Shown here: positions 25,612-55,969 of the stretch, one piece after another
Layout of the letters: the number at the start of each line of letters is the position of its first letter
How positions within the stretch are numbered: position 1 is the first letter of the stretch
Assembly: GCA_028277945.1 (NCBI GenBank)
Contig: JANQFH010000008.1
Coordinates: forward strand, 195,442-259,441
Direction of reading: 5' to 3'
DNA from: Oligoflexia bacterium
Lineage (GTDB): Bacteria > Bdellovibrionota_G > JANQFH01
Length of the DNA: 64,000 nt
The notes under the pieces: model-generated
The model's input: only the letters and a program-made list of their open reading frames with translations
Database searches by the model: none
Told to the model about the DNA's origin: nothing
Position numbers and translations under genes: made by a program

Positions 25612-25616
25612 TTGTG

Positions 25617-26933: not shown

Positions 26934-26945
26934 TATGATCTCTAT

Positions 26946-34453: not shown

Positions 34454-35638
34454 ATGAATAAAGAAAAGACGATTAAGAGCTCTCTTTTCAATGGATTTTC
34501 TCTCCAGGCCTTTATCTCCTCCACTCCAAGCATTGTGACGGTTGCGATTATTCCATTTATCGTTAAACACCTCGGTTTAGCATATATATGGATCGGAGTT
34601 ATTTTTTTTCTATTACGAGTGGGTCTAATAAGCGGTCGGTTTATCGGTCCGTTCTTTCTAAAATGGCTAAAACCACATTACCTCTGTGCTATTTTTGAGC
34701 TAAAGAATTTTTTCTTGATTACCATTATCTGGTTTTATTTCGACAGGATACCTTCTTCCCTCTTTGCTATTCTTTGGCTGCTAAAAGGAATCATCATTGG
34801 AGCCATATCAACCCTGGTATTTTCTTGGCTGCGTCATCTATCCGACGTCAGTAAGACCAAGCGAACGTTAATTACGGTTATGGCTATTATACAGTCTAGC
34901 TATGGTGTAGCAGGAGTTATCATTCTTACTACAACTCCTGATATAAATCTTATCAAGAATATCTTGTTAATTGATGCGCTGTCATCCTGTGTAGGACTAG
35001 TTACATTTTTGAATCTTAGGCGTTTTCGGGCTAAGGACACAGGTCGTGGAAACGCATTCTCCATATTTAAATTTCCATTTCTCAATAGAGAACGCGTCAT
35101 TCTTCTTATTGTGGATATTTTGGTAGCGGCAGGTCTTGGCGGTGCAAATATTCTACTAGTGAAGTATGGTGAAATGTACTTTTCTACCATAGGCGGATAT
35201 GGCACGACGCTTGTCGTATATGCGATAGCTTTTCTAATCGTTGGCTTTCTATTTAATATAGAACAGTCAGATACAGATCTCATTATTCGTAGACTGACGA
35301 TGCTTTGCGTGCCTCTAATGTGGGCAGGGTTGGTTGTTTTGGCTATCGCATCAGATAAGTCTTTGTTAGGTATTGCTGGATTTTCACTAGTCTATTTAAA
35401 CTTACCTATTTTCTTTTTAAGAATACAGGCGAAATGGTTCACGTTAAGTACCCCTGAAGAAGCGGCTAAGATATTCGCTTACAGAAGTTTACTTGTAGAT
35501 GTTGTTAGTGCTGTCGGTGAAGTGGTCTACGGTAGTATTAAAGAAGATATTCTGATAAGAATTACTCTCTTAACTCTTGCTATTATTCTTGGAATTGCTT
35601 TCCGAAATATGATCTTTCCTCACACACAACAATCATGA
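34454..35638 (+). CDS. polytopic membrane transporter (MFS-like)
   Basis: 394-aa ORF with about 12 hydrophobic segments; convergent with the histidine kinase at 35658..37493. Confidence 0.5.
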   Translation: MNKEKTIKSSLFNGFSLQAFISSTPSIVTVAIIPFIVKHLGLAYIWIGVIFFLLRVGLISGRFIGPFFLKWLKPHYLCAIFELKNFFLITIIWFYFDRIPSSLFAILWLLKGIIIGAISTLVFSWLRHLSDVSKTKRTLITVMAIIQSSYGVAGVIILTTTPDINLIKNILLIDALSSCVGLVTFLNLRRFRAKDTGRGNAFSIFKFPFLNRERVILLIVDILVAAGLGGANILLVKYGEMYFSTIGGYGTTLVVYAIAFLIVGFLFNIEQSDTDLIIRRLTMLCVPLMWAGLVVLAIASDKSLLGIAGFSLVYLNLPIFFLRIQAKWFTLSTPEEAAKIFAYRSLLVDVVSAVGEVVYGSIKEDILIRITLLTLAIILGIAFRNMIFPHTQQS

Positions 35639-35657
35639 AGAATGAGCTTTGTATAGC

Positions 35658-37493
35658 CTAGGCACTATATCTCGCCAGTGATGATTGATTGTTCAATTCG
35701 GGCATTACTAGTAGCGGCACAGTATTCGCCAGCATTTTAGGTAGTAATTTCACTTTCCACTTAGTACATAATTCTTGAATTTCCATTTCTTCAAAGCGAG
35801 AAGTTACAAGTATTGATTGTTGCTCCAGCCTGTATTCCTTGATCAAATCCAATCCGGTTTTTTTACTTCCTAGCAATTCATAGTCAAAAAGATAAATTGA
35901 TGGTCCCTGTTCTTTATGTTGTGCTAGATAGCTTGATGCATCGGTATAATTAGACAAATCAACTTGATTAATGGAATGTAGATATTTCAGCGGGCCAAGC
36001 CGGTTTGTCCACACGTGGTGGATAAATATATCGTCGTCAAGTACTACAAAGTCACTATTTGGCTTTATATGAATTTTTGGAACATACCAATTTGGTGGAG
36101 GAGCCTTGGGAACTATCATCTTCACATTCGTTCCCATGTTTTGCCGTGAGTCTATTGTTAGTTCTCCATGCCAACGTCCTAAGGAGCTCTTCGCATAGTA
36201 TAAGCCTAGTCCTAATCCATGTTTCTTGTTAGCAGTCACACCTCTCTCTGTCGCTTTTTTAAGCAGTTCCTCTGACATGCCGCATCCATTATCCGAGACT
36301 TCAATACAAAAATTGTCTCCGGAACAATTGCATAGTCGTATACTAACTTCACCATTATTTGGAATAGCTTCCACGGCGTTATTAATAAGGTTCGAGAGAA
36401 TTCTTTTGAACTCGACAATCTCGACCTTCGCAAAGATACTATAGGCTTCTTCCGTAAAAACTGTATTAATCTTTATATCCTTACGTCCTGAAAACTGAAT
36501 CCTCTTTTCGGACACAAGAGTTTCTATAAGCACGGCGATCTGCTGAGTACTTACACGTTCGAAGTGAGTGTTGTCTAAATGGCGGGCATCCTGATCTGAG
36601 TAATAGGTATTGTCATTCCAAAGTAGCTGACGATGCTTTTCTACTAAGCTATTAGCAATATCCTGAATACGTGTGGCCGCTTGTCGCAAAAGAACACGTT
36701 GTTCTTCAGGGATATCACTAGAAGACTTGCCCAACATCTGCAAAGCAGTCAACGGTGATCTGATATCATGGGCCACTCTTGAGGCAATCTCGCCCATTGC
36801 GGCCTTCTTTGTTGCTCGTACTAGAACAGCTTGGGCTGTTTCTAATTCTTTTACCAATTTTCGAGTATTTTTGTATAATTCATTAATCTCCTTTATGTTT
36901 GAAAATCGTACTTCTTGAGAATTCTCAAATAGAGACCTTAGTCCATGTTGCGAAAGTCGTCTAGATAGATGCACTATCGGCCAAGTAATTTTTTTTCCTA
37001 TAACCCCTCCTATCCAGACGAATATAATAAATAGGGAAACAAGGGCTATTACGAGCACTACTAACGCTCGATAAACAGATCGTGATAATAGTTGTTGTGA
37101 AAAAACAATCTGGATCGTTGCTGCCATTTCTTTGCTAGTTTGATCAAAGTAGACATGAGAGGTAATAACTTCAGTTGAGGAGATTCCCTCACGTTTGGTG
37201 GTACTGCAGATTGAAAAATTTTGACTGTCAACAACACTTATACCCAAAATTGACCGGTCACGTAAAAGTATTTTACATTTTCTGTAGACTTCCGCATGGG
37301 CTCCTATAAGAAGACTGTGGCTTATGTCCTCGGTAAAGATGTTTACGATAGATTGGAACTTTGCTTGAAGCTCCTCCTCTGCACTCTTCTTTATCAAGTA
37401 GAGTGCCAATGCCCCACTAAGTACGACAGTTGCCGCCGTTATGACGGCTGAGGGAACGAACATAGCCCTGCCTAATGTCCACCTAAATCTCAT
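35658..37493 (-). CDS. hybrid sensor histidine kinase with C-terminal receiver domain
   Basis: Paralog of the other two kinases; H-box VAHDIRSPLTAL, N-box NLINNAVEA, G-box DNGCGM, REC-like VVLDDD ... LFDYEL; start taken at ATG 37493 (track TTG start at 37532 is the alternative). Confidence 0.85.
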   Translation of the reverse strand: MRFRWTLGRAMFVPSAVITAATVVLSGALALYLIKKSAEEELQAKFQSIVNIFTEDISHSLLIGAHAEVYRKCKILLRDRSILGISVVDSQNFSICSTTKREGISSTEVITSHVYFDQTSKEMAATIQIVFSQQLLSRSVYRALVVLVIALVSLFIIFVWIGGVIGKKITWPIVHLSRRLSQHGLRSLFENSQEVRFSNIKEINELYKNTRKLVKELETAQAVLVRATKKAAMGEIASRVAHDIRSPLTALQMLGKSSSDIPEEQRVLLRQAATRIQDIANSLVEKHRQLLWNDNTYYSDQDARHLDNTHFERVSTQQIAVLIETLVSEKRIQFSGRKDIKINTVFTEEAYSIFAKVEIVEFKRILSNLINNAVEAIPNNGEVSIRLCNCSGDNFCIEVSDNGCGMSEELLKKATERGVTANKKHGLGLGLYYAKSSLGRWHGELTIDSRQNMGTNVKMIVPKAPPPNWYVPKIHIKPNSDFVVLDDDIFIHHVWTNRLGPLKYLHSINQVDLSNYTDASSYLAQHKEQGPSIYLFDYELLGSKKTGLDLIKEYRLEQQSILVTSRFEEMEIQELCTKWKVKLLPKMLANTVPLLVMPELNNQSSLARYSA

Positions 37494-39021
37494 TGTCTTT
37501 AGCCCACTGTAGTCGGTAGAGAGGAAAGTCAAATTGGTAGCGTTTTTCCGGGACTTTAATATGTTTGTGGTAAATTACCGGAGTATAAAGATGAAATAAT
37601 GGAACGATAAATGACTTTTCCTCAAACTCAATCATTAGATCAGTGTATTTTTCTAATCTCCGTATACGGTCAGATATGAAACTGATTTCATCAGCACCCT
37701 TTAAAAGCTTCGTTGTGGGGAAATTGCCAAATTGGATTGGATTTTTGGCTCGAAACAAGTCTAGGAAGCCATCTGGGTCTGGTATGACTCCAAAATAACC
37801 TACCATAATCAAATCGTAATCTTTGCTTTTTAGAAGAGGTATAACCTCTTCAATATTTTTGAACTCTATAATCGGGATCATACCTACGTTGGTCAACACT
37901 TCACTGATAGCCTTACCTACAGGTATGTTTAAATATTCTTTCCTCAAAACTATTCTAAGCTTTTTATGTTTTACTTTATTTTTCCAGAGCTTTTTGAAAC
38001 TGATCGGACTCATACGGCGAAAGTCACGTTCGTAGTATCTTCTTAGAAGAACGCCATGTGGTAAAAAATGCTTCTGATGGTCTATAAAGAAACCGGGTTT
38101 CTCTATCTGGGAAACTCGAGTTTTTATTAGCGCCGCAATATCTCTTCTAAAACTTTCATTACTTAGTGCTGGATTGTCAGTGTTTGTATATAGATGTAGG
38201 ATGCCCAGTCCTCCTAGACGGAGTAACTGATAATTATTTGGTAGTGTTCCCGGTTGTAATCCTGGATCAGCAAAGCCTAATGCGAAGTCAATCGAGTCAT
38301 TCCGTAATTGTGATAGTAGTTGATTTGCGCTTTCTACCCGTCGAAACGAAAGCCTGGATATATGGCTATCATTGGGAACGAACGGAACCATCTGCAGACG
38401 ATTTGGCAGTTGTACTGAGTCCAGAGAAAAAGAGCCAGACCCCACTACCTGAGAAGAACTACCAGAGGACTTTTTAGTTACACCGTAACCAGGTACTGCT
38501 AACAATTCTAACAGATACGGATACGGACGCTTGAGGCTTAGAATAATCGTGTGCTGATTCGGAGTGATAATTCCCGATGGTATTTGTCCATCTTTCAGGT
38601 TTTCGGCACCTACCACGATACGACCTAGATAGCTGGATATTTGCGTCATACTACCTTGCCATAAATGGCGTGACAGACTAAAGGCGATATCTTTACTCGT
38701 AATGAGCGCACCATCATGGAACCGAGCATGACGATCCAGATGAAAGCTATAACGTCTTCCATCTGAAGATATCTTCCAGCGCCTTGCAAGATCAGCTGTA
38801 ATACGATTTTCTTTGTCTAACTTTACTAGAGTGCGTAAGTATGGTCTAAGAAGGTCAGAATGTACGTAATGCCACGCATCTATTGGATCCAGAGAGCTGG
38901 GCAAAATAGGCAACGCTATCTCAAAGCTGTTGGTTGTCTTACGGTACTTCTGTTTAGATGATGCTGCATAAGTATGAAAGACAAATGAAAATAAAAGAAA
39001 GTGCAACAGGCACGCCTTCAT
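37483..39021 (-). CDS. family-5 extracellular solute-binding protein, orphan
   Basis: SBP5 paralog; start taken at ATG 39021 (MKACLLHFLLFSFVFHTYAASS signal peptide; GTG at 39042 is the alternative); stop overlaps the kinase start. Confidence 0.8.
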   Translation of the reverse strand: MKACLLHFLLFSFVFHTYAASSKQKYRKTTNSFEIALPILPSSLDPIDAWHYVHSDLLRPYLRTLVKLDKENRITADLARRWKISSDGRRYSFHLDRHARFHDGALITSKDIAFSLSRHLWQGSMTQISSYLGRIVVGAENLKDGQIPSGIITPNQHTIILSLKRPYPYLLELLAVPGYGVTKKSSGSSSQVVGSGSFSLDSVQLPNRLQMVPFVPNDSHISRLSFRRVESANQLLSQLRNDSIDFALGFADPGLQPGTLPNNYQLLRLGGLGILHLYTNTDNPALSNESFRRDIAALIKTRVSQIEKPGFFIDHQKHFLPHGVLLRRYYERDFRRMSPISFKKLWKNKVKHKKLRIVLRKEYLNIPVGKAISEVLTNVGMIPIIEFKNIEEVIPLLKSKDYDLIMVGYFGVIPDPDGFLDLFRAKNPIQFGNFPTTKLLKGADEISFISDRIRRLEKYTDLMIEFEEKSFIVPLFHLYTPVIYHKHIKVPEKRYQFDFPLYRLQWAKDNEI

Positions 39022-39038
39022 CAAAATGTGAATGAGTT

Positions 39039-40130
39039 TCACTGCGTACTCCGGTCACAGTAGATCTCAATATCATTCTGTTTTATCAGTATATGTTTTT
39101 GTGTATACGTTACTTCTACGCCTTTATGGTGTGCTTTGTAATCATATCTATAATGACCATCGAAATATCGGCATATTTGTAACGGCCCTGATTTTTTTAG
39201 TAGGTCTGTCACCCCCAATTGTAGAGGATTTTTATTTCCCGAACGTGATGACGAGGCCATCTCCTGAAACGGATGCAATTTTGAATCAATTCGCTTAGGT
39301 ACATTAGGATGAGCGTAATAAAATATTTCTCTGTCACCGCACTTCCTAAAGTAATAGGGAATGTCACCTCGTTCTAATTGTTCTAGCTCACTAGGTAGAA
39401 ATTCGTTCCCGTTTAAATTATTCGCCTTCTTTGTCAAGAAGGAATGATAATCTCTTGTAGACCGAGGAATGACCCGAATCGGATTTTGCATGAATCCATC
39501 AATGGAAGCAAAAAGATTCGCTGTGAGTTCTGTTACTGATGAGAGAAAGTTCAATGCGTCAAAAAAACCAAAGCAAATTGCAGCAACGCCACTGTGGGAT
39601 CTATCCAACTCTCGAAAGTTATTTAATAGGTGGGAGAGTCCTGAATCTTCAAATGTCAATGCAGGGGAAGGTATGAGTGCTGTTTCAGAGAGAAGTGTGT
39701 GATCTTCAAAGATACATTCTATATCGATAGGGCTGAATATGATACTGCCAGCAGAAGTCTTGCCAAGCAATACATTGGCACGGTGCAGATCTCCAATTCC
39801 GAACCAAGTAATAAGTGCGATGGTACGGCCAATATCTTCTAATACTTCTAAATCTAGATCTTTGGAAATGAGAGGTTTAAGTAGGAGTTCCTCTACTCTG
39901 CCAAAACATTTTTCACCAGGAGATGACATTTCGACATATAGTTTTGGTAAAGATCTTCCTGGGTATACAAATCCCCTTTTCTTAGCTTCAGATTCTAATA
40001 AAGATGTTAAGGGACTTAATCGAGATAAGAAGAGGTATTCCCAAAATACAGTTCTAGGCTTGCAAATCCTTTGGGTACCATCACGACAAACTCGCTGTCC
40101 AAAATTGTGAGGGTCGCCTAACGGTTGCAT
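39039..40130 (-). CDS. hypothetical protein, possible kinase-like phosphotransferase fold
   Basis: 363-aa ORF with GGGAGG before the ATG; segment GIGDLHRANVLL resembles catalytic loops of aminoglycoside/protein-kinase-like phosphotransferases; occupies the modifying-enzyme slot of the cassette. Confidence 0.35.
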   Translation of the reverse strand: MQPLGDPHNFGQRVCRDGTQRICKPRTVFWEYLFLSRLSPLTSLLESEAKKRGFVYPGRSLPKLYVEMSSPGEKCFGRVEELLLKPLISKDLDLEVLEDIGRTIALITWFGIGDLHRANVLLGKTSAGSIIFSPIDIECIFEDHTLLSETALIPSPALTFEDSGLSHLLNNFRELDRSHSGVAAICFGFFDALNFLSSVTELTANLFASIDGFMQNPIRVIPRSTRDYHSFLTKKANNLNGNEFLPSELEQLERGDIPYYFRKCGDREIFYYAHPNVPKRIDSKLHPFQEMASSSRSGNKNPLQLGVTDLLKKSGPLQICRYFDGHYRYDYKAHHKGVEVTYTQKHILIKQNDIEIYCDRSTQ

Positions 40131-40144
40131 ATGCCTCCCATCAG

Positions 40145-40258
40145 TCTATGCGGGTAGAGAAAGGGGAGGCTTACCTAGATCCCTACAGTCACGCCACGTA
40201 TTACGACAATCTTCTCCAATTTATCTAAATCTATGTATTCTCGTCTTCTTTTTTTCAT
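40145..40258 (-). CDS. candidate precursor peptide (37 aa): MKKRRREYIDLDKLEKIVVNTWRDCRDLGKPPLSLPA
   Basis: Below the ORF-track cutoff; ATG preceded by AGGAG at 6-nt spacing; stop lies 14 bp upstream of the 39039..40130 gene. Confidence 0.35.
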
Positions 40259-40895
40259 GATTTACTCCTATTTAGGTTATATCCACCAATTTTTCAAGCT
40301 CTTATTTGATATCCTTAAAGCTTAGGATGCACCCTATCCTAATTTATTTCTGCAAGGAACGTGCTAACAAAAAAGTTAATGATTTTAAAAGATTGGGTTC
40401 TTCAGGAAAGAGTATTGTTGGTTTTTGCAACAATCTAGTGCATAAAACGACAAATTGTATCTCTTACGACCAAGGTTAATAAAAGTTAATAGTGATTGAA
40501 GGGGAGGATTAGTTGTGGAGTGTTAACCCTTGGATGATATTAGACGAATTTTGAAAATCGGTCTTAATCTATTGATAAAAAAGAAACTTTTTGGGAAATT
40601 GGGGTTGATTGCCGACTGACCCAACAAAATACTACAGAAGTCTTAATGTGACAGACGTAACACATGATTCATTTCAGATGCTTATGTTGTAGTGCAGAGT
40701 GTATAGAATTTTCTCAACAAGAAGGCATATATCCTGGGAAAGGCTGCTGGTTATGGGATGTGGCCTTGCCTACTGGTATGGCGACTTACAACACTTACTC
40801 TTTTGTTAATTTCCGTAGGACTAAGAGTGGTTGCGAGGCTGGTGTACAGCATTCTCCCTATTTCAGTGGAGGGCTTGTTTTCAGAGTTTAAACAC

Positions 40896-41000
40896 CTAGT
40901 TCGCTATGAGGCTTTCCATAAACTGGTAGCCTTCGGCAATTGCAGCATCGGTAATTTGGTCCTTCAAACTGTCAACACTTCTCCGTCCCCAAGCACATGA
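40896..41000 (-). pseudogene. 3'-terminal remnant of a paralog of the lipase-like gene 44960..46414
   Basis: Minus-strand translation ...SVDSLKDQITDAAIAEGYQFMESLIAN-stop matches the C-terminus ...GLKDQITDAAITEGRQFMESLIVN-stop of 44960..46414, with a nucleotide match of about 70 bp; no upstream body. Confidence 0.5.
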
Positions 41001-41116
41001 AGTGTGTTGAACTTGAAATAGGTCTGCTACCTAAGCGAATGCTTTCCTACATTCCTATTGAAGTAGTTGGGCATAAATTACGTTAGTGGTTTTAACAAAT
41101 ACTAGTTAAGGTCTTG

Positions 41117-42331
41117 ATGTTTAGATTCTATTTCAACTCTTTTCGAGGTTTACCCAGGGCGGGAGTGTTGCTTTCATTGGCTGCATTGATAAACCGTCTT
41201 GGAAGTGTGGTGTTGTTTTTCTTTGCGATCTATTTAACGAAAAATAATTGGAGCGTATTTGATATTGGGAAGGTTCTATCAGCCTATAGTTTTGGCTATG
41301 CAGGTGGGGCTTATCTTGGTGGTCGTCTTAGTGATCGTTATGATAGCCGTTTTATACTTATAATTACACTAATGGGTTCTGGCTTATGTTTCTTCGGACT
41401 TTCTATAGCGGATTCTTTTACACCTGTTATTCTTTTACTTTCTATGGCTGGCATTTTGGAAGGTGCCTTTAAACCAGCATACAATGTTACAATGACCCGA
41501 TGTTGTACCCAGGACGAGTGGTCACGTGCTTATGCACTGTATATGACCACGACTTATTTAGGAGGAGCTATAGCTTCAATGGCAGGTGGATTTTTGTCCA
41601 AATGGAACTTTAGCTACATTTTTTATTTTGATGGTGTAACGTGTATCATTGCAGCGGTTTTTGTGTGTATTGTTTTCGATCGGCTAACCCGTTCAGTGGA
41701 AGCAGAGAAAGAGCAAATCACCGATGAGTTCAGTCTATCTAAAAATACACCTCCATCTTCTCTAGTTATTTGGATAATTTTTGTATCCATGTTTTTTGTC
41801 TATCTTGTTGATCAACAGGAGTCTGGAAGCTATATGATTCATATTACAAAACAGTATGGTATTGATACTCACCAGGTAGGTATGTTGATTGCTTTTGGCT
41901 GTGTACTTATGGCACTGACCACTGTACCTTTGACTCAGTTTTTCAAACGCATTCCGGATTTTATCGCGATGACTTTAGGATCTTTGATTCTTTGCCTGTC
42001 CTTTGGTCTTTTGAATCAGGGTGATAGTTTTGCCTTTCTTTTCTTGTTGATGGCTATGTGGTCCTTGGGCAGCATCATATCATTTCCGACCGTAGTGAGC
42101 CTCATTGGTAAGTACTCAACAAAGGAAAGGGTTGGACATAACATGGGAATTTACCATTTCATCTCTGGCTTAAGCAGAATCGTCGCGCCCTCTCTTGGTA
42201 CCTATGTCTATCAAAACTTGGGTCCGAATATCTTGTGGAGTGCTTGCACTGCTATTGGTGTTTTCAGTGGTGTATCCTTCCTTCTCATTTATCGTTTTAG
42301 TTTAAGGTCAATTCACTCCAGAGAAGCATGA
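41117..42331 (+). CDS. MFS-type transporter
   Basis: About 404-aa polytopic membrane protein, motif-A-like loop GGRLSDRYDSR; ATG at 41117 (track start is TTG at 41114). Confidence 0.7.
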   Translation: MFRFYFNSFRGLPRAGVLLSLAALINRLGSVVLFFFAIYLTKNNWSVFDIGKVLSAYSFGYAGGAYLGGRLSDRYDSRFILIITLMGSGLCFFGLSIADSFTPVILLLSMAGILEGAFKPAYNVTMTRCCTQDEWSRAYALYMTTTYLGGAIASMAGGFLSKWNFSYIFYFDGVTCIIAAVFVCIVFDRLTRSVEAEKEQITDEFSLSKNTPPSSLVIWIIFVSMFFVYLVDQQESGSYMIHITKQYGIDTHQVGMLIAFGCVLMALTTVPLTQFFKRIPDFIAMTLGSLILCLSFGLLNQGDSFAFLFLLMAMWSLGSIISFPTVVSLIGKYSTKERVGHNMGIYHFISGLSRIVAPSLGTYVYQNLGPNILWSACTAIGVFSGVSFLLIYRFSLRSIHSREA

Positions 42332-43131
42332 AACTGATCGAAAGAGATGTAGCTTTAATCAACCATGAATATTACATCGATGGAATTGCTGGCAGTCAGT
42401 ATACATCGAGACAGGTGTTTACGTGCCGAGGTAAACTATTTGTTGTGATTGATGAATTGTGTGTCGATAAGTTACATGATATAGCGGTTAACTACGTTGG
42501 CCAATATAGTACTAAGAGTATAGTGTGTCTTTGCTCACATTTACGTGTTAGACAAATTAGTGAAATGTGGGAAAAGACAAGTTCAAAATTCTATTCGTGG
42601 TTTGGTTTTACGTTTGATCCGGCATTGTCCCGGTTCGACTTTGCTTACTCGAAAAGTGCACTAGAGGGATTCGACGTATCGGTCGGTATGCCAATTAGTA
42701 AGGTTGAAAAGGAAACACTGTTAAAATTGTGGCAAAAACACTATATTGAAAAGGTTCTCCTAGGTTATCCGGAGAAAATAAGGCATCGTTATCTTGAAGA
42801 ATTTCAACAAAGATTGGGTTCTGATAATGAAAATCGGCATACCATAGTTCGGCAGGATAGTGAGATTGTGGCCCATCAGATGCTACGAAGACTTTTTACG
42901 GAGCAAAGAAACTGTTGGGATAAAGAGTTGCACTTTTGGGTCGATGGACAGCTGAATAAGTCGATTCGACGAGAAATTCATCGACGGTTTTGGTATGAAG
43001 TACATGAGGCATCGAGAAAACATATGGTGCTTGGTGGTGTTGCGAGTAATAATATATCGAGTATCAAACATCTCATTAAAAATGGTGGCCGATTACTTTT
43101 TATTCAATACATAGGGTTATCGTCTTACTAG
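42328..43131 (+). CDS. hypothetical protein (cassette enzyme slot)
   Basis: 267-aa ORF whose start overlaps the MFS stop by 4 nt; no recognised motif. Confidence 0.4.
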   Translation: MKLIERDVALINHEYYIDGIAGSQYTSRQVFTCRGKLFVVIDELCVDKLHDIAVNYVGQYSTKSIVCLCSHLRVRQISEMWEKTSSKFYSWFGFTFDPALSRFDFAYSKSALEGFDVSVGMPISKVEKETLLKLWQKHYIEKVLLGYPEKIRHRYLEEFQQRLGSDNENRHTIVRQDSEIVAHQMLRRLFTEQRNCWDKELHFWVDGQLNKSIRREIHRRFWYEVHEASRKHMVLGGVASNNISSIKHLIKNGGRLLFIQYIGLSSY

Positions 43132-43253
43132 TGGTCTGACATATCTTGGTTGTCACCCTACAAACTACACATAGATTGTGTCAAAATTGAACAGTTTGTT
43201 TGAAATGGAGACAGTAACAAACCAAGTAAAAACTAACTGATTTTATGCCTGTG

Positions 43254-43343
43254 TAACCTTGACGGATTTAAGCGATCAGGGTAAGCATTTATAATTAGAC
43301 GAGATTATAAATGAGCTTAGAAAGGGAAGCGCAATGCGGAGTT
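43254..43343. repeat. duplicated promoter/5'-leader element, copy 1 (pairs with 47260..47352)
   Basis: AACCTTGACGGATTTAA ... ATTATAAAT.AGCTT.GAAAGG.AA..GCAATGCGGAGTT shared with 47260..47352, including a TTGACG -35-like box, a purine-rich RBS and the ATG CGG AGT start. Confidence 0.6.
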
Positions 43344-44740
43344 CAAAAATTGGTATGACAAACGTTCCAAGTGACCTTGATCCATTGAAGGCACGATATG
43401 CTTACGACCTGATGATGAACGCATGCGTTTTTTCGCGACTTGTACAGCTTGATGGTAATGGTCAGGTGGTGTCAGAGCTTGCGTCCAGTTGGAAGGTTAG
43501 TGATGCAGGAGATGAGTATACCTTTACCTTGAATTCGGACGCGAGATTTCATGATGGGTCACCAGTAACAGCTCGAGATGTTGTCTATACCTTCGAAAGG
43601 ATCTTGAAGTCAGATCGGCCACCTGCTTCGATTCTTCGTCTAGCATTAGATCCTTCCTTTCGTTCGGATGAGGATTGTCCGGTAAAGGCAGTGAACGATC
43701 GTCAGGTCAAATTTCATTTACCTGGTGCGTACCCGCCATTTCTGTCTCTGCTTTGTAATCCTGTTTTTGGAATAGTTGCTCAGGATAGTGATGGTAAGAT
43801 TGGCTCTGGTCCAATGGTGCTGGAGGCTGACGAGCATAGTAAGACATTGAAGTTTAAACCCTTCCAGGAAGGCGCCGGTCTCGGCGAGTTTTATGTAAAG
43901 CAGATCTCCCGTGACAGCTTACCGGAAGTTATTGCCGAAGATGAACTAGATCTGATTTTTGGGCTCAATTCAATAGATTTTCAGAACGTAATCCGCATAG
44001 ACCCATACAAGGTCGTCAGAGGCCATGATTCGTTTGTCGCTCACTTTTTATGCAATACCAAAAGTCCAGTACTAGATTCTTTAGAGAGGCGACGTAATCT
44101 AAGCTATTTGATCAATTCGCTTTCAGATGAAGTGAGCAATTTAGCAGAATATCAAAAACCGCTGAAAAGTTTTCTACCAAGTGGGTTGTTGTCGCCATCT
44201 TATTACCAGAGAGCAACATCGCCTGTATCCGAGGATGCCTTTAGTGCAAAAAACAGCCAATTCAAAGCCCAACCGCTGCGTATCGTGGTTCAGAAAGGTA
44301 TTTTTTCTCAGAGTTATATGAGTGCGCTAGGTTCTCTAATAGAAAGGCTAGGTATGGTACCTGATATTCAACTAGTGGATTCAGACGCATTATGGAACCG
44401 CTATGCAAAGGATGATTATGATCTTATATCTTTTAGTTACAGTTTGGCGATTCCCGACGATCCAGATGGCTACCTATGGCCCTTCGACAATAAGGAGCTC
44501 GGCATTGATAATCGGTTTCCTATGAGCTCTTTTCTTCAGAAGATTGAAAAGGTCCGTTTTACGTCGAACCAGAAAGAGAGACTCGAGCTCTATGAACGTG
44601 AGTTCAAGCAGTTTGAACAGGAACATTACTTTATTCCAGTGCTTCAACATGACCATCTTATTGCTTTTAAAAACCGGAGCGAAATACCGACTTTAAAGCC
44701 TACATTCCTTTATCGATTGTCTGATTTTATCAGACCTTAG
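43334..44740 (+). CDS. family-5 solute-binding protein lacking a signal peptide (N-terminally truncated paralog)
   Basis: 468-aa ORF aligning to the other SBP5 paralogs from about residue 40 onward (SKIGMTNVPSDLDPLK vs LKIGVSILPQTLDPMK); begins MRSSKIG with no hydrophobic leader. Confidence 0.65.
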   Translation: MRSSKIGMTNVPSDLDPLKARYAYDLMMNACVFSRLVQLDGNGQVVSELASSWKVSDAGDEYTFTLNSDARFHDGSPVTARDVVYTFERILKSDRPPASILRLALDPSFRSDEDCPVKAVNDRQVKFHLPGAYPPFLSLLCNPVFGIVAQDSDGKIGSGPMVLEADEHSKTLKFKPFQEGAGLGEFYVKQISRDSLPEVIAEDELDLIFGLNSIDFQNVIRIDPYKVVRGHDSFVAHFLCNTKSPVLDSLERRRNLSYLINSLSDEVSNLAEYQKPLKSFLPSGLLSPSYYQRATSPVSEDAFSAKNSQFKAQPLRIVVQKGIFSQSYMSALGSLIERLGMVPDIQLVDSDALWNRYAKDDYDLISFSYSLAIPDDPDGYLWPFDNKELGIDNRFPMSSFLQKIEKVRFTSNQKERLELYEREFKQFEQEHYFIPVLQHDHLIAFKNRSEIPTLKPTFLYRLSDFIRP

Positions 44741-44959
44741 CCTAGATCCGGACACAGACATATTTTTTAACGAATTTATTATGGTTCATTTCGTGTAATA
44801 GTGTGTTCGATCCGAGTGTGTACCCTAGGCTTTTTCAAGAATGAGTTTGGTTTTGAGCCGAAAGGGCTCTAGCAGTATATCCAGGGTACCCCGTTTCAGG
44901 CGGCGACGTCCTTTAAGAAAGGCGGAGATGTTTGCTGGCGTTGCATGGGCAAGTAAAGC

Positions 44960-46414
44960 CTAATTCACTATTAGGCTCTCCATAAACTGGCGGCCTTCGG
45001 TAATTGCCGCATCGGTAATTTGATCCTTTAAACCTGTGGCATTCTTTGCCCAACACTCAGGGCTTTTTGAGAATAGGAATCGCTGCTGGTTGGCCTTGAA
45101 CCCATATTGGTGTCCGCCACCTCTGCCGCGCTGGGCGTGACCGTTGTAAGAGGTACAATAAGACATCTCTGCCCATTCTAAATCCTCTCGTCTCGCTTTC
45201 AAAACCAATGCCGGACAATCATCAAACCATTTCAACACGGCATCTGCCTGTTCACTACATTTAAGCAAAAGACCAGAGATAACATCCATAAAAGCCATTC
45301 CTGCCATACACTGACCTACACTCAACTTTTGCGGCCTATGAATATGCCGATGCATCCAATGCCAAACAGGCATTAAAGAAGAGTGTAATCCATTTACCAG
45401 TTCATGCATATAGGCTCGTTCGTATTGTACTACCGGATCTTCAGAATTGATTGATCCGATCAAAAATTCTTCTTTAATCTTTATCTTCATCTCTCCATTG
45501 TTTTCAAAAACCCATTTTTCAAACATCTCGTCTATAGCCGAACGGATCATCAGCATTACAAAATCCCATGCTGAACCACTAAGATAATGCCTTACAAAAT
45601 CGTGCCCCGTACCTGTCGCCTCCTCATCACTCCAGTTTGGCGGTAGTTTTTTTGGCACTGCTCTGATAATTCGATCTTGCTTCAGCGTAATATGCAATGG
45701 CTTGATATAAGGGGTGTCTCCAGGACCTTTTGCTCTAGATAAATCACCCAACTTAGTTCGCTCAAACCGAGTATCAGACACCTTACTTGCTGGCGTTGCC
45801 ACTGAAATCAGCATCATGATACCTTTAAAGCCTCCGTTATCACCCTCGAACATCACCTTTTCATAAGCCTCATTTGAAAAGAAATTCCCTTGTGAGTGAC
45901 TGACTGTTAATGTATTGTAACCTTCCTCCAGTGATTTTCGATAAGCCGCTACTTGTTCAGCAATGTCAGCTCTTCTTTGTCTGTTCACAAATTCGTCAAA
46001 TAACCCCCTAATCGACTTAGAGATGTTCACCAAAAAATCCGGCGCTAGGTGCTGCTGGGAGAACAGACGAAACATGCTCCCTGAATCTAAGACAACGTTT
46101 TTTCTACGCAGATCGTCCCGCTTTTGATCCATTGCCTCGGCAATCTGCAGCAAAACTGTTTGATCGGTGTTGAACGCGATGTTCGGCTCAGCGTCTCGTA
46201 CTAGCCCTTCCACACCTCTCAAAACACGCATTTTCTCCCAAAGCTGAGTCCAAGATTTTTGTGCCTCCTCAAAAGAGGTAAACATTCCATTTGCGAAATA
46301 TAATCTCGATTTCCTCCAACACTCACCTGCACCATAACCTACCTCAGCCACAGTCAGCAGAACGACAAGGATCCCTAGAGCAATGTTCAAATTTCTACTT
46401 GTGTTCAAATTCAC
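44960..46414 (-). CDS. secreted hypothetical protein, possible alpha/beta-hydrolase (lipase-like)
   Basis: 484-aa ORF with signal peptide; SxSxG-type nucleophile-elbow candidate (TVSHSQGNFF); its C-terminus is duplicated as a remnant at 40896..41000. Confidence 0.35.
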   Translation of the reverse strand: MNLNTSRNLNIALGILVVLLTVAEVGYGAGECWRKSRLYFANGMFTSFEEAQKSWTQLWEKMRVLRGVEGLVRDAEPNIAFNTDQTVLLQIAEAMDQKRDDLRRKNVVLDSGSMFRLFSQQHLAPDFLVNISKSIRGLFDEFVNRQRRADIAEQVAAYRKSLEEGYNTLTVSHSQGNFFSNEAYEKVMFEGDNGGFKGIMMLISVATPASKVSDTRFERTKLGDLSRAKGPGDTPYIKPLHITLKQDRIIRAVPKKLPPNWSDEEATGTGHDFVRHYLSGSAWDFVMLMIRSAIDEMFEKWVFENNGEMKIKIKEEFLIGSINSEDPVVQYERAYMHELVNGLHSSLMPVWHWMHRHIHRPQKLSVGQCMAGMAFMDVISGLLLKCSEQADAVLKWFDDCPALVLKARREDLEWAEMSYCTSYNGHAQRGRGGGHQYGFKANQQRFLFSKSPECWAKNATGLKDQITDAAITEGRQFMESLIVN

Positions 46415-46898: not shown

Positions 46899-47259
46899 CT
46901 CTATTCTCCTTCTTTAGTTACTACGATTGCGGAAAGTTGTTCTGTTTCCTTAATAACGCAAGAATCGTGCCTATACAGGGTCATATAGGCAATCTCATGA
47001 TTCGGGTTTCTGATGTATCTGATAAAACAAAGATGGATGAAGGAAAATGAAACAACCTGACGTTAATCCAAGCAATATGTATGAAAAGAAAACAACAGCG
47101 TGTATGTCATGCTTGGAGTCTTTTCACTCGGTATAAGTAAAAGAGCCTCGACAGAAACGACGTGGATATGTTTGTGCTGAGTCAATTGTTATTTGCGCAT
47201 CTCCGGATCTGATGAAACAGCGACAAACTGAAAGAAGAACTGACCAACTTTACCATTTA

Positions 47260-47352
47260 TAACCTTGACGGATTTAATCAGTCAAGGTAGTCAATGAACT
47301 AGGATTAGTAGGATTATAAATAAGCTTGGAAAGGAAATTGCAATGCGGAGTT
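47260..47352. repeat. duplicated promoter/5'-leader element, copy 2
   Basis: Matches 43254..43343; here the shared ATG CGG AGT start opens only a 16-codon upstream ORF (MRSLMLQFIGRKYVSR, stop 47391..47393) overlapping the start of the gene at 47380. Confidence 0.6.
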
Positions 47353-47379
47353 TAATGTTGCAGTTTATAGGAAGAAAGT

Positions 47380-47748
47380 ATGTCAGCCGTTAAAATTACA
47401 GCAAATTTATTTTCGCTGTACTTTGTAATAGTGCCTTTCAGCAATGCAGCAAACTGGTCACTCGTAGAGAAGATTGACCCAAGCACAACGGCTCAGACCA
47501 AACGTGAATTAACCGACAGCGAGTATTCGTATATTTCTGGTAAATTCAAATGCACTGTTTTAGCACCAGAGAAAGACTCAAATAAAAAACGTGGGTGGTT
47601 TAGAACTATTAAGTGTAAAAATGGCGATCTAGTATTTGAAGATACTGCTTCTTGTGGCGGTATACATGGAGAATTCGGTATTGTCGGGGTTAAAGTTACC
47701 TATAAAGGTGAAACTTTTCAGCCATTGCTAGTTTGTCAGGCAAAATAG
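47380..47748 (+). CDS. small secreted hypothetical protein
   Basis: 122-aa ORF with signal peptide and four Cys. Confidence 0.45.
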   Translation: MSAVKITANLFSLYFVIVPFSNAANWSLVEKIDPSTTAQTKRELTDSEYSYISGKFKCTVLAPEKDSNKKRGWFRTIKCKNGDLVFEDTASCGGIHGEFGIVGVKVTYKGETFQPLLVCQAK

Positions 47749-47975
47749 TTTCATCGCCTAAAATGGCCTAGTCAAGAAAAGCGTTTACAGGTTGTGAAAA
47801 GAGAAGGCCCTCTTATTTCAATGAGGCCGAATTTATCCGCGATATAAATTAGTTGTACAATGGAAACGCATAAGGAACCAGGGCATTCTAGATTTCTCCG
47901 CCCGTCTAAAACCGTGTATATCTGGTATGTAACATCAATAATGCATGATATTGGTCGAAGAAAAGGTTAACATGC

Positions 47976-49151
47976 GTGGATAGGTTAATGAGCGGAAGCT
48001 TGGTCCGTGTCTATGTTGTCCGATTTTGTGCTTCAAGCATTGAAGGGATCGTAGCCGTAATCACGATTACAGCCTTCATCAGAGCGACGGGATCAGTTAG
48101 TGCGGCAAACCTTCTCAATTCCATATTTTGGCTGACGTTATTTTTTGCAGAGCTGCCAACTGGCTATCTAACAGATAAGTGGGGTGGTAAAAGAGCGCTA
48201 GGTATTAGCTTAACTCTACGGGCTATTGGGTTTTTAATTTTCTACCTTGCTGGAGGCTCTTGGATTCTGCTTATAGTAGGCTGTATATTAACAGGCGTCG
48301 CTGTAACTTTCCTAAGTGGAACCTTTGAGCTACAAGTAAAGCAAATTCAAAAAGAGGCACAGACACAAGAGCTAGCCGGAGATTCCTCAAAGACCGTCAT
48401 TTCTTATCTACATTTTTCTCACTATCTGGGCCTATGTACCGGGTCACTTCTCGTAACACTTTGGCTGCTTAAAATGGAGATACAGACAGCATGGCTATTG
48501 TCGGCTTGTCTATCATTTATTGCGCTCGGTATCTTATCCTTTACCTGGGATTCTCTTAAGCCTGCTTATGATAAGGGTCCTTTTATTCATTTCAAAGAAG
48601 CTGTCTCGAAAGTTATTAATGAGCAGAAAGTTCGGAGCCTATTTGTATATCAATTTATCTTTGTACTTTTTTCGATATCGTTTCTAACGAACTGGGTAGT
48701 GATTTTTGTCCCAAGACTAGACAATACGCCGATTCAGCTCGGCGTATTAACGGTGGTTTTTTCTATGCTGATTAGTTTTTTTGTATGGACGTGGAAGTAC
48801 CTAGAGATACTTAAAAGATTAACTATACCTTATGTTTTCATTGGATTTTCTATATCGCAAGTGCTCGCATGCAGCGATGTTATGGTGTTTAGATTTCTTG
48901 GCGGATTAGGTGCCTTATTTTTCTTTGCTGGCTGCCAGATAGGCATCCGGCATGCAATATTTTCATCTATTTCGTCCTCGAAAGCGGGAGCTATCTTGTC
49001 GCTATTTAGTTTGCAGGAAAATTTTTCTGGTTGGGTTGGTTTACTTTCATTGGCATTCTTTCTGAAGCTCTATTCAGTTGAGGTATCCTGGATAGCCTCA
49101 GGAGCCTGCATGGTTGCTGCAGTTGGCTTTTATTCATTCCATCGACGTTGA
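47976..49151 (+). CDS. MFS-type transporter
   Basis: 391-aa polytopic membrane protein; motif-A-like loop GYLTDKWGGKRAL; GTG start at 47976 or ATG at 47988. Confidence 0.55.
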   Translation: MDRLMSGSLVRVYVVRFCASSIEGIVAVITITAFIRATGSVSAANLLNSIFWLTLFFAELPTGYLTDKWGGKRALGISLTLRAIGFLIFYLAGGSWILLIVGCILTGVAVTFLSGTFELQVKQIQKEAQTQELAGDSSKTVISYLHFSHYLGLCTGSLLVTLWLLKMEIQTAWLLSACLSFIALGILSFTWDSLKPAYDKGPFIHFKEAVSKVINEQKVRSLFVYQFIFVLFSISFLTNWVVIFVPRLDNTPIQLGVLTVVFSMLISFFVWTWKYLEILKRLTIPYVFIGFSISQVLACSDVMVFRFLGGLGALFFFAGCQIGIRHAIFSSISSSKAGAILSLFSLQENFSGWVGLLSLAFFLKLYSVEVSWIASGACMVAAVGFYSFHRR

Positions 49152-49213
49152 AAGGACCGGTTAATAGCTACGGTCATATTGCACTTTCAGCTTCTATGAT
49201 CTATTAAGTCGAA

Positions 49214-50011
49214 ATGGCAAGAAAGTCGGTCTACACAAAGGAGTGGTGGAACGCCGCATTTCAAGGAGGTGTCTATCCTCTTACGCAACTGGCGGCCTTA
49301 AAGGATCAAGTGGGGTTAACGCGAAGAGAGGTTCAGGGTATTAAAAAACTGTTGAATCTTCCAAAAGGGTCAAAGATCTTGGATTTAGGATGCGGAGTCG
49401 GACGACACTCGCTAGGTCTTGCAAGACATTCATATGATGTAACCGGAGTTGACATCTCGAATACGTTCCTTAGATATGCACGAGCGAGAGCTAGAAAAAT
49501 GAAACTGCAAGTCAATTTTATACGAAAAGATATGCGACTCCTATCTTTCAAGGGTCAATTTGATGCAGCTATAAATATTTTTACCAGCTTCGGATACTTT
49601 CCGCAAAAGTCTGATGATCTCCGCGTTGCTAGAAAAGTCTGTAAATGCCTTAAGCCAGGCGGTAAATTTCTTCTAGAGATCTTCAACGGTACAAAAATTC
49701 AAAAACTCCTGGTTAATGCCAATAGCAATAGAGAACCCGTCCGCCGCTGGTATGAATTTGCAGATAGGAGTCTGCTGTTAGAGCATCCAAGCTACTCCAA
49801 GCGTCTCGGGGGGACAGTCACGAGGTGGATTTATATCACTAAGGGAAAACGAAAAGAAGTGACTTCGTTCACCAGAGCGTATTCTAAGAGCAGTTTAGTC
49901 CATTTGCTGAAAAATGCAGGATTCAGACAGGTGACAGTTTATGGAGACCTGGAATGTTCACGTTACTATCCGCATAAATCTAACCGCCTAGTAGCAGTAG
50001 CAACGAAGTAG
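49214..50011 (+). CDS. class I SAM-dependent methyltransferase
   Basis: 265-aa ORF with motif I ILDLGCGVGRHS and downstream acidic-loop and motif-II-like segments. Confidence 0.75.
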   Translation: MARKSVYTKEWWNAAFQGGVYPLTQLAALKDQVGLTRREVQGIKKLLNLPKGSKILDLGCGVGRHSLGLARHSYDVTGVDISNTFLRYARARARKMKLQVNFIRKDMRLLSFKGQFDAAINIFTSFGYFPQKSDDLRVARKVCKCLKPGGKFLLEIFNGTKIQKLLVNANSNREPVRRWYEFADRSLLLEHPSYSKRLGGTVTRWIYITKGKRKEVTSFTRAYSKSSLVHLLKNAGFRQVTVYGDLECSRYYPHKSNRLVAVATK

Positions 50012-50426: not shown

Positions 50427-50654
50427 AAACAGGCAGCAGCACAGATTGGTCATTTAGTGAAAAAGACCCGTAAAAGTCTAGGTGTCACCCAGAAGGAGTT
50501 GGCGCTGACCTCGGGTACAGGTCTGCGCTTCATCATTGAGCTGGAGAAGGGCAAACCGACCTGTCAACTAGCCAAGGTGCTGACGGTTCTACATACGCTG
50601 GGCATCAAGCTTGAGCTAACGGCGCCAGCCACTGCAAGAGATGACGGCAAATGA
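50424..50654 (+). CDS. hipB: HipB-like XRE-family HTH antitoxin
   Basis: 76-aa ORF with HTH segment LGVTQKELALTSGTGLRFIIELEKGK; overlaps the hipA start by 4 nt. Confidence 0.7.
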   Translation: MKQAAAQIGHLVKKTRKSLGVTQKELALTSGTGLRFIIELEKGKPTCQLAKVLTVLHTLGIKLELTAPATARDDGK

Positions 50655-51907
50655 GCAAGACTCTTGATGTTTATTTGTACCGCCACCTGGTTGGCTGCCT
50701 CATACAGGATGAGCATGGTCTGATGGTATTTGATTATGCAGAGAACTGGCTAGAGAATCCCAACGCAATTCCTCTATCGTGTTCGCTACCGCTAAGAAAA
50801 GAGCGCTTCTCGTTTAAGGAATGCCGAGGATTTTTTACCGGCGTCCTACCAGAAGAAAGTAAACGAGAGGTGATTGCGCGCATTTTTGGAATTAGTGCAC
50901 GCAATGACTTTGCCATGCTTGAGCAAATTGGCGGTGAGTGCGCTGGAGCAGTTACTTTCATTCCCACTGGTCAATTGTTGCCGGAGCGTGACGAGCACTA
51001 CCGTGAGGTTTCCAACCAAGAGTTGGCGGAAGTTCTTCGAACACTACCAACTCGGCCCCTTTTGGCGGGAGAAGAGGGCGTCCGTCTATCGCTAGCAGGT
51101 GCACAGGACAAAATTGCTGTTCGTATGGATGGCGATAGAATCTCCATTCCGCTTGGAGACTCTCCCAGCACACACATCCTGAAGCCCGACATCGAGCGTT
51201 TCCAAGGGGTGGTTTTCAACGAGGCGCTCTGTATGCAATTGGCGGCCTCTATCGGCCTACCAACGGCGAATGTACAAACCCGCAGCGTTGAAGGCATCGA
51301 TTATCTTTTGATTGAACGCTATGACCGAGTGGTTCATATGACGTCCGATGGTCAGGCAAAGCTTCAACGTCTGCATCAGGAGGATTTTTGTCAGGCACTC
51401 GGTATTCCATCCGAGATGAAGTACCAGAGCGAGGGAGGGCCATCTCTCAAACAGTGCTTTAGCTTACTGCGAGAAGTTTCCAGCGCACCGGTGATCGACC
51501 TACAGCATCTTCTAGATGCCGTTATTTTTAATCTGCTGATTGGCAATCACGATGCGCATGCAAAGAACTTTTCATTTTTGTATGGAGATGGGACATCAGT
51601 AGAGCGGGGGACAAGACTTGCACCTCTGTATGATCTGATCAGCACCGTCTATTACCCAGAACTATCCAAGAAGATGGCCATGAAAATTGGTGGTGAGTAT
51701 GCTGCAGACAAAATCTTCCCAAGACATTTTGAGAGACTTGCCGAAGAGGCTGCCTTAGCCAAGCCGATGGTCAAGAAACGTATACCGGAGGTAGCTGAAT
51801 CCCTGATACACAGTCTAAGCAGCTTAACTACTGAAGAGTCGGTAGCAAAGGGTGTCACTCAAACTATACAAAAGCAGGCTGAATTGGTTCTGGAACGATT
51901 CAGATAA
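50651..51907 (+). CDS. hipA: HipA-family serine/threonine kinase toxin
   Basis: 418-aa ORF; HipA N-terminal region and catalytic motif FNLLIGNHDAHAKNFSF, plus LAGAQDKIAV. Confidence 0.85.
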   Translation: MSKTLDVYLYRHLVGCLIQDEHGLMVFDYAENWLENPNAIPLSCSLPLRKERFSFKECRGFFTGVLPEESKREVIARIFGISARNDFAMLEQIGGECAGAVTFIPTGQLLPERDEHYREVSNQELAEVLRTLPTRPLLAGEEGVRLSLAGAQDKIAVRMDGDRISIPLGDSPSTHILKPDIERFQGVVFNEALCMQLAASIGLPTANVQTRSVEGIDYLLIERYDRVVHMTSDGQAKLQRLHQEDFCQALGIPSEMKYQSEGGPSLKQCFSLLREVSSAPVIDLQHLLDAVIFNLLIGNHDAHAKNFSFLYGDGTSVERGTRLAPLYDLISTVYYPELSKKMAMKIGGEYAADKIFPRHFERLAEEAALAKPMVKKRIPEVAESLIHSLSSLTTEESVAKGVTQTIQKQAELVLERFR

Positions 51908-51913: not shown

Positions 51914-52180
51914 TTATTTCCCCCATCCGATATATTTCTTGTAACCTTTTTCTAAATTTATAATTTCAAAGACATCACCATCAAATGTTGAGCACTGCAA
52001 TTTTTTTCCATTACATCCAAGATTGGCGTAGTTAATTTCTGGCTGGTGTCTGGATGGCGGTGCTAGGGTCCACATTTCTTTACCGTTTAGATCGAACGCT
52101 CGGATGTTTTGTGGGTCTCTGGATTCAAAGAGAAAGACGATGAGTTTATCAGCTAGGTAGGCTGTTTGATACATTCCCAC
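51914..52180 (-). CDS. immunity-like small protein, N-terminally shortened paralog of 52293..52658
   Basis: 88-aa ORF sharing RDPQNIRAFDLNG ... DVFEIINLEKGYKK with 52293..52658; in-frame stop about 8 codons upstream of its start. Confidence 0.4.
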   Translation of the reverse strand: MGMYQTAYLADKLIVFLFESRDPQNIRAFDLNGKEMWTLAPPSRHQPEINYANLGCNGKKLQCSTFDGDVFEIINLEKGYKKYIGWGK

Positions 52181-52292: not shown

Positions 52293-52658
52293 TTACTTAC
52301 CCCATCTTTTTTTAAAACCTTTTTCTAGGTTTATGATCTCGAATACATCGCACTCCACTGTAGCGCATAGCAGACTGTTTTCATATTCCCATAGATTGAC
52401 GTAGTAGACCTCCGGTCTATATCTAGATGCCTTTGTTAGTGCCCATAATTCATTGCCATGGAGATCAAAAGCACGGATATTCTGTGGGTCTTTGGATCTA
52501 AAAAGTACAATAATGATGTTATCGATCAGATATCCTACTGTAATCTTCCCATATGTTTTAGGAAGGAGTATGGATTTGTGATTGTCTACTTTTATTTCTA
52601 TTCTATTGTCTCTTTCTAGAAGTTTTTGTAATTTCACCATATTATTGGTTCGCTCCAT
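52293..52658 (-). CDS. immunity-like small protein (downstream of large secreted toxin-like gene)
   Basis: 121-aa ORF overlapping the 3' end of 52634..54766; no signal peptide. Confidence 0.4.
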   Translation of the reverse strand: MERTNNMVKLQKLLERDNRIEIKVDNHKSILLPKTYGKITVGYLIDNIIIVLFRSKDPQNIRAFDLHGNELWALTKASRYRPEVYYVNLWEYENSLLCATVECDVFEIINLEKGFKKRWGK

Positions 52659-55964: not shown

Positions 55965-55969
55965 TAGTG

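Follow-up and report, generated by a model that had tools for sequence, protein, structure and literature searches.

The subject of this analysis is a gene on the forward strand (+) at positions 43334..44740 of a 64,000-nucleotide stretch of DNA from an Oligoflexia bacterium (contig JANQFH010000008.1, positions 195,442 to 259,441), which is referred to below at its full length as the window and to which all coordinates apply. This open reading frame (ORF), which begins with ATG and encodes 468 amino acids, specifies a cluster C solute-binding protein of the SBP_bac_5 family (SBP5) that comprises the entire mature domain and lacks the signal peptide carried by its three paralogs in the same window.

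The leaderless gene and its secreted paralogs

The encoded protein, which opens with MRSSKIGMTNVPSDLDP, matches the Pfam profile SBP_bac_5 (PF00496) with 124 bits (E 1e-35; gathering score 32.4 bits) over residues 45-386 and profile positions 2-362 of 368, a score that places it within the family. In a phmmer comparison with PDB sequences, residues 6-448 align to mature chains, the top match being CtaP/Lmo0135 (5isu, E 4e-17), followed by AapF, NikA, MppA, and OppA. An AlphaFold2 model built from a 50-sequence alignment, with a mean predicted local distance difference test score (pLDDT) of 89 and a predicted template modeling score (pTM) of 0.89, places the first beta-strand at residues 3-8, and Foldseek comparison of this model with the PDB returned TM-scores of ~0.8 to AapF (7kz8/7kz9), DppA, NikA, and OppA; the complete two-lobed cluster C fold is thereby predicted. 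The ORF reads through 468 codons without a stop to the usual C-terminus of the family, and its start is situated four residues ahead of the first strand of the mature fold.

The three paralogs, to which the protein is 42%, 26%, and 21% identical, also match SBP_bac_5, with the domain beginning 32-61 residues later in the protein. The closest of them (42%) is encoded at 24097..25611 (-), the true start of the longer ORF 24097..25701 (-) being probably 25611, as in the 504-amino-acid NCBI protein P0002, and is followed by the kinase gene 22314..24110. The second, at 37483..39042 (-), is preceded by a LanM-N-like gene (39039..40130) and followed by the kinase gene 35658..37532, while the third and distant paralog, at 6689..8248 (-), is followed by a YcaO-like gene (5737..6675) and the kinase gene 3907..5727. 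In a four-way alignment, the tripeptide KIG near the start of the leaderless protein aligns with ELKIG, SFEIA, and TIKLD of the paralogs at residue 36-66, ahead of which the paralogs carry 35-65 additional N-terminal residues.

Signal peptides were called by hydropathy (Kyte-Doolittle, 12-residue window) and inspection. An h-region scoring 2.4-2.8 is present near the N-terminus of every one of the three paralogs (VGILGLLSAVCF, IFSVLFLICFLS, and CLLHFLLFSFVF), whereas the same scan finds none in the first 20 residues of the leaderless protein; its sole mildly hydrophobic stretch, LMMNACVFSRLV, belongs to the conserved mature domain. By these means, neither an N-terminal Sec signal nor a lipoprotein signal was found, and the opening residues contain no twin-arginine motif, lipobox cysteine, or hydrophobic region. 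Upstream, the reading frame is closed by an in-frame TAA at 43292..43294 (+), 14 codons 5' of the ATG, the 13 intervening codons encoding LDEIINELRKGSA. In the ~200-bp spacer 43132..43333, each of the three forward frames is interrupted by several stops, and none encodes a hydrophobic run or a leader remnant. An upstream start, an alternative start codon, and a frameshifted leader are thus ruled out, and the first-pass annotation, which had described the gene as an SBP5 paralog without its signal peptide and had suggested searching for exactly such an upstream start or frameshift, is confirmed: the gene is a genuine leaderless SBP5 paralog.

The suspicion that a normal signal peptide is concealed by an artefact, be it a miscalled start, a frameshift introduced in sequencing, or chimeric assembly, has some grounds in this family and is nevertheless extremely improbable here. 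P0003, P0006, and P0007, which are among the nearest database relatives (27-28% identity) and come from Bdellovibrio/Pseudobdellovibrio metagenome-assembled genomes (MAGs) and a Logan contig, appear leaderless as called, but their loci (L001-L003) contain in-frame upstream extensions encoding hydrophobic leaders, for example MYCVKTETGYSKNQIQKFLFLAVNIIFIGFS followed by VNSYA. A leaderless clade formed by these proteins was therefore rejected, since all three are start-call artefacts, unlike 43334..44740. Because approximately one-fifth of the database homologues appear N-terminally short as called, the lengths recorded in databases are unreliable for this family. Additionally, a 33-bp exact repeat, common to a relic near 16 kb described below, breaks short-read assembly at 43505..43530. 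However, the 5' end of the gene is not an assembly error, since run SRR20820740, assembled independently by Logan, reproduces 32328..43530 of the window with 100% identity. The Logan contig stops at 43530, a second contig holding the other 411 codons, and this break coincides with the repeat, across which the similarity to the paralog is continuous. An error of the NCBI record is accordingly ruled out, just as the closed frames rule out a miscalled start.

The paralogs differ from the leaderless gene in a second respect. Each is followed on the same strand, overlapping or nearly so, by a histidine kinase gene with HisKA and HATPase_c domains (3907..5727, 22314..24110, and 35658..37532). These kinases are mutually 34-39% identical, and their C-terminal extension has a receiver-domain-like DDD...D...T/S...K pattern without a Pfam call. 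Since each contains two transmembrane (TM) helices around a ~120-residue loop, its solute-binding partner would have to be periplasmic, and by analogy the arrangement fits a periplasmic solute-binding protein that signals to the kinase. In contrast to the three paralogs, the leaderless gene has no membrane kinase with a periplasmic loop beside it; its downstream neighbor, 44960..46414, is an unrelated gene in convergent orientation, and permissive tblastn revealed no kinase relic in 44741..44959, which bears out the earlier remark that no histidine kinase follows.

A protein without a recognizable signal could in principle leave the cell by non-classical export or by piggy-backing on a partner and work in the periplasm together with a kinase or transporter from another locus. 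Nothing direct speaks for this explanation, which is very unlikely, although a partner in trans is conceivable, the contig measuring at least 514 kb and the inspection covering 64 kb of it. It is opposed by the composition of the N-terminus just described and by the transporter scan, in which no ABC permease or ATPase gene (no BPD_transp or ABC_tran match) was found among the window ORFs of at least 150 amino acids that were scanned, all but three of that size (1134..1622, 4171..4770, and 61338..61832). The earlier statement that the product would stay cytoplasmic is strengthened to the extent that Sec, Tat, and lipoprotein signals are all missing; the cytoplasmic location itself we infer.

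The duplicated 5' module and the traces of rearrangement

The segment in which the gene begins occurs twice in the window. Copy A of this 5' module (43208..43346, +) comprises a putative promoter, the 5' untranslated region (5'UTR), a ribosome-binding-like site, the ATG, and the first four codons, and copy B (47214..47355, +) is located upstream of ORF 47380..47748. In a blastn self-comparison, the two copies are 74% identical over 144 columns (E 3e-13), with core blocks of 86-87% identity, and they differ by a Jukes-Cantor distance (d) of 0.36. They share an 18-nt identical block TAACCTTGACGGATTTAA, the sequence GATTATAAAT, the ribosome-binding-like GAAAGG(G/A)AA, and GCAATGCGGAGTT, which carries the ATG together with the first codons (M R S). 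In copy A, the Shine-Dalgarno-like sequence AAAGGGAAG (43321..43329, +) has a G-rich core that ends 6 nt before the ATG, and this site ranks among the best of the window with good spacing; the ATG of copy B opens a 16-codon upstream ORF overlapping the start of the 122-residue gene at 47380..47748. Judging by position and conservation only, the module may function as a promoter. No match to the window or to the module was obtained in Rfam and tRNA scans, and a scan for the module 18-mer in a GTDB-representative genome contig collection from which the source genome is absent gave 21 matches in unrelated taxa, at chance level.

The point at which the module gives way to the solute-binding protein can be located in a three-way alignment, where the gene tracks the module up to ATGCGGAGTTCAA and the paralog at 24097 from AAAATTGGT (K-I-G) onward. 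The junction lies at ~43344-43348, and a T(C/T)AA is common to all three aligned sequences there. This alignment suggests, as a point absent from the first-pass annotation, that the leader was lost by 5' replacement and not by erosion. A single illegitimate recombination at the T(C/T)AA microhomology may have swapped out the signal peptide together with its linker, the incoming segment being a copy of the promoter, 5'UTR, ribosome-binding site, and ATG that also precedes the 47380 operon. A new in-frame start would thereby have been created four codons ahead of the first beta-strand of the mature domain, and the kinase in cis would have disappeared in the course of the same rearrangements. The protein would then be made and kept in the cytoplasm, unable to act as a periplasmic co-sensor, and the common module probably places its gene under the same regulation as the 47380 operon.

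Downstream of copy B, the operon (47380..50011, +) encodes a secreted-looking 122-residue protein with a hydrophobic N-terminus, four cysteines, and no family match (47380..47748, +), a major facilitator superfamily (MFS) transporter (47976..49151, +), and a class I S-adenosylmethionine (SAM) methyltransferase (49214..50011, +).

Relics of other cassette genes surround the leaderless gene and recur elsewhere in the window. At 40988..41080 (+), the 3'-terminal ~27 codons of a histidine kinase gene of the cassette type survive (KCVELEIGLLPKRMLSYIPIEVV), matched by the extreme C-termini of all three kinases. This fragment abuts, at the truncated sides of both, a relic of a u484-like 3' end (40895..40982, -; 87% nucleotide identity over 75 bp and 71% amino acid identity over 28 residues), which is the left copy of a direct repeat, D1; the right copy (44959..45033, -) is the true 3' end of the u484 gene 44960..46414. 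The two abutting relics read as a deletion joint, such as one deletion would leave, and the D1 copies (40895..40969 and 44959..45033; 87% identical, 13% mismatch) bracket the block containing the leaderless gene.

A further relic, at 16033..16146 (-), covers approximately codons 36-81 of an SBP5 gene with a 6-codon deletion and lies inside the 61-codon ORF 15964..16149, the fragment mentioned in the first-pass annotation, which is SBP5-derived in this part only. Its closest relative is the leaderless gene (84% nucleotide identity over 74 bp and 78% amino acid identity over 27 residues, 55-81), compared with 45% for the paralog at 24097. It adjoins a second kind of repeated 5' segment (15903..16033, -; 131 bp), which is 80% identical to 28015..28145. 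The latter lies ~235 nt upstream of cassette 2, the former just upstream of an MFS gene (14620..15888). Because the relic abuts this repeat, another 5' segment appears to have been pasted beside a truncated SBP5 gene. Turnover of cassette copies, proposed in the first-pass annotation, is thus well supported by the comparison of these sequences, namely the 16-kb relic, the kinase relic, the u484-like relic, and the duplicated 5' modules.

Three side observations concern these repeats. Read as short ORFs, 15903..16033 and 28015..28145 would encode similar peptides (IQTNCLxxEQxVLYQTxC), but their amino acid identity does not exceed their nucleotide identity, giving no sign of coding constraint. 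The stop of gene 16150..17643 is directly followed by the same-frame ATG of the 61-codon ORF with the SBP5 relic. In addition, two direct-repeat pairs are similarly spaced, 40895..40969 and 44959..45033 by 4064 nt and 43254..43346 and 47260..47355 by 4006-4009 nt; the nearly equal spacing would fit one old tandem duplication of ~4 kb, perhaps followed by replacement, yet the interiors are now non-homologous, and the chance of coincidence is roughly 2%.

Retention or recent death of the gene

Taken as a whole, the reading that 5' replacement gave rise to a cytoplasmic, still-constrained SBP5 protein, probably co-regulated with the 47380 operon, is held with evenly balanced confidence, and within it the most likely state is a gene that is still expressed and has been retained for ligand binding in the cytoplasm. 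Retention is considered likely because the ORF is intact, its product is predicted to fold confidently, and its sequence is not accelerated.

The last point was assessed by a Tajima-type relative-rate test against the sister paralog at 24097 with eight outgroups. With seven of these, the numbers of unique changes at otherwise conserved sites are nearly the same in the leaderless gene (32-36) and in its sister (31-41; chi2 < 1), while the most distant outgroup, L001b, shows an excess in the sister (19 versus 32, chi2 3.3). Furthermore, 34 of the 40 near-invariant columns of the family are kept, a number equal to that of the leader-bearing paralog at 37483. A simulated neutral phase of 0.18 substitutions per site, half of the module divergence, would have produced ~60 unique changes versus 32, unlike the symmetry observed. 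In simulated neutral phases of 0.10-0.15 substitutions per site, moreover, fewer than 0.4% of runs kept the ORF free of stops. For a junction that dates back to the module duplication, these results imply purifying selection on the ORF ever since.

Among the features of pseudogenes, frameshift, premature stop, domain truncation, and accelerated unconstrained change are all missing from 43334..44740, and only the loss of elements of the ancestral role is present, namely of the signal peptide and the kinase in cis. The term non-functional, offered in the first-pass annotation as one prospect for the product, finds no support in these tests, given the full mature domain, the confident fold, the ribosome-binding-like site, and the lack of acceleration.

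It is nonetheless quite possible, though less likely, that the gene is a young dead orphan, made useless by the rearrangement too recently for disabling mutations to have accumulated, and on its way to becoming the next relic of the 16-kb type. Both features common to the three paralogs, the leader and the adjacent two-TM kinase, have been lost, the gene's own sub-lineage is represented in the window by a dead fragment, alongside other deletion scars, and no orthologue demonstrates conservation. The available tests also leave room for a short period of decay, since in neutral simulations with substitutions only the ORF remained stop-free in 31%, 6%, 0.35%, and 0.15% of cases at 0.02, 0.05, 0.10, and 0.15 substitutions per site, respectively, and the relative-rate test is blind to a neutral phase of d ~0.05 or less. 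If the gene is dead, it therefore died recently, within ~0.05 substitutions per site, and the junction formed well after the module copy arose. Against this explanation, the junction would have to be several-fold younger than both repeat pairs, the module copies having diverged by d = 0.36 and the D1 repeats by 13% mismatch. The explanation is also at odds with the unaccelerated rate and the conserved residues, and with a fusion that is in frame, keeps a ribosome-binding-like site and the ATG, and is placed exactly where the mature domain begins. Such an in-frame fusion with a usable ribosome-binding-like site favors a selected outcome, a consideration that carries a bias from how the gene was noticed.

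Several points weigh against retention as a constrained cytoplasmic protein. The gene has no orthologues: its protein is an exact singleton, the next best match among 5.8 billion clusters being its own paralog at 42%, and selection after the event is consequently not directly measurable as a ratio of nonsynonymous to synonymous substitution rates (dN/dS). The argument for selection assumes a fusion as old as the module duplication, and a later deletion could have given a recent junction. In a sigma-70 promoter and terminator scan of 42900..45100, sites were no commoner than in shuffled sequence, and no recognizable sigma-70 promoter was found in the module. Finally, no cytoplasmic partner is evident, and the gene directly upstream, u267, is an ORFan.

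A more specific form of the selected outcome, which is rather unlikely, is neofunctionalization, in which a periplasmic co-sensor became a cytoplasmic binder of the peptide-like product of the cassettes after capturing the module of the 47380 operon. Such a protein could serve as an intracellular receptor, as a sequestering or immunity protein, or as a chaperone together with the adjacent MFS and ORFan genes.

These adjacent genes belong to the same block. The MFS transporter (41114..42331, +; Pfam MFS_1, E 1e-56) lies upstream of the leaderless gene, and u267 (42328..43131, +), a 267-residue protein, has no Pfam or NCBIfam match and no homologue, its single-sequence AlphaFold2 model (pLDDT 36.5) being unusable. 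Neither is homologous to the MFS and 277-residue genes of cassette 2.

The cassette family, its setting, and comparison with known systems

The cassettes of the leader-bearing paralogs, which span 3907..8248, 22314..27779, and 35658..40130, are each adjoined by an enzyme of the type that acts on ribosomally synthesized and post-translationally modified peptides (RiPPs). These are a YcaO/SagD-like protein (5737..6675), an aKG-HExxH (alpha-ketoglutarate) peptide beta-hydroxylase (26946..27779; 43.6 bits versus a cutoff of 40), accompanied in cassette 2 by an MFS transporter, and a LanM-N/DUF4135-like protein (39039..40130). The gene order of small ORF, DUF4135-like gene, SBP5, and kinase recurs at 9097..13508 of L001, 8929..13227 of L002, and 1541..5376 of L003, and cassettes of this kind are present in Bdellovibrio/Pseudobdellovibrio MAGs. 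The cassette family looks like a set of modules for the production and sensing of modified peptides, and no description of a RiPP-enzyme/SBP5/kinase cassette family was found in a literature search. In cassette 2, a possible precursor peptide is encoded by a 34-codon ORF (27818..27922, -; MAKSNESKKTVSFNFSFQSHRVLGAKLASIPTGS) that precedes the HExxH peptide hydroxylase gene by 39 nt.

The wider window belongs to a lineage without close sequenced relatives, in which most of the proteins checked are singletons and even SelB (488..2617, -) has no database relative above 46% identity (best non-self 44-46%). It is dense in toxin- or addiction-type genes, including a Fic protein (9717..10907), a 594-residue protein with a RES domain (19139..20923), HipA (50651..51907), directly preceded by a 76-residue helix-turn-helix (HTH) partner ORF (5761..5991 in the calls for L026), and, close to where the window ends, a PIN-like ORF (about 62100..62600). 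The G+C content varies between 39% and 53% along the window, and this variation and the density of toxin genes are consistent with a variable genomic island. Other repeats include a 217-bp direct pair (51935..52150 and 52308..52523; 68% identity at a period of 373 nt) located between hipA and gene 52634..54766, and a tandem repeat with an 82-nt period (55946..56036 and 56028..56118) inside the 3' end of gene 55970..57538. The product of the latter gene (-) and that of 16150..17643 (-), both secreted-looking proteins of ~500 residues without a family match, are 27% identical over 134 residues.

The best-known counterpart of the leader-bearing cassettes is CBP-ChiS of Vibrio cholerae, in which an SBP_bac_5 protein controls a membrane kinase (PMC8050422, PMC12704726), and about ten other cases of signaling from a solute-binding protein to a kinase have been characterized (PMC8050422, PMC9602780, PMC12704726). 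The three paralogs of the window belong to the same Pfam family, PF00496, and are encoded directly upstream of, and overlapping, a two-TM kinase. The leaderless gene departs from this pattern in having neither an export signal nor an adjacent kinase, and no ABC transporter was found among the scanned ORFs. Moreover, the window cassettes adjoin RiPP-type enzymes and not catabolic genes, and the coupling of solute-binding protein and kinase is here predicted from gene order.

Among proteins of solved structure, AapF (7kz8/7kz9), NikA, OppA, DppA, MppA, and CtaP (5isu) have the same complete fold, with identities of only 16-23%. The solved cluster C proteins all carry a signal peptide or lipobox, whereas 43334..44740 has neither and is also without a transporter partner. 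With the relics of its own window (16033..16146 and 40988..41080), the gene shares an origin in the same rearrangement-prone cassette region, but those are fragments of 27-38 codons, and it is full length and undisrupted.

Taken alone, a leaderless protein of this kind is of little weight, as solute-binding-profile proteins without a leader are a known minority and turnover of paralogs is expected in variable islands. Its value lies in being a clean, datable example in which the export signal disappeared, as proposed above, in a single 5' swap that would have supplied both a new promoter and an in-frame start. It also marks a more interesting setting, an island in a poorly sampled lineage with at least three RiPP-enzyme/SBP5/kinase cassettes. 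If the gene is expressed and constrained, a signaling solute-binding protein would have moved from the periplasm to the cytoplasm, a switch of compartment caught in the act.

Cytosolic proteins that match solute-binding protein profiles of Pfam account for ~1% of such proteins in 49 model proteomes (PMC9602780). Like them, the protein encoded at 43334..44740 consists of a single solute-binding domain with neither a signal peptide nor a TM segment. The known cytosolic proteins have established alternative functions (PMC9602780), whereas none is established for this one. Unlike those cases, however, it is visibly derived, by what appears to be 5' replacement, from a secreted, kinase-linked family encoded within the same 64 kb.

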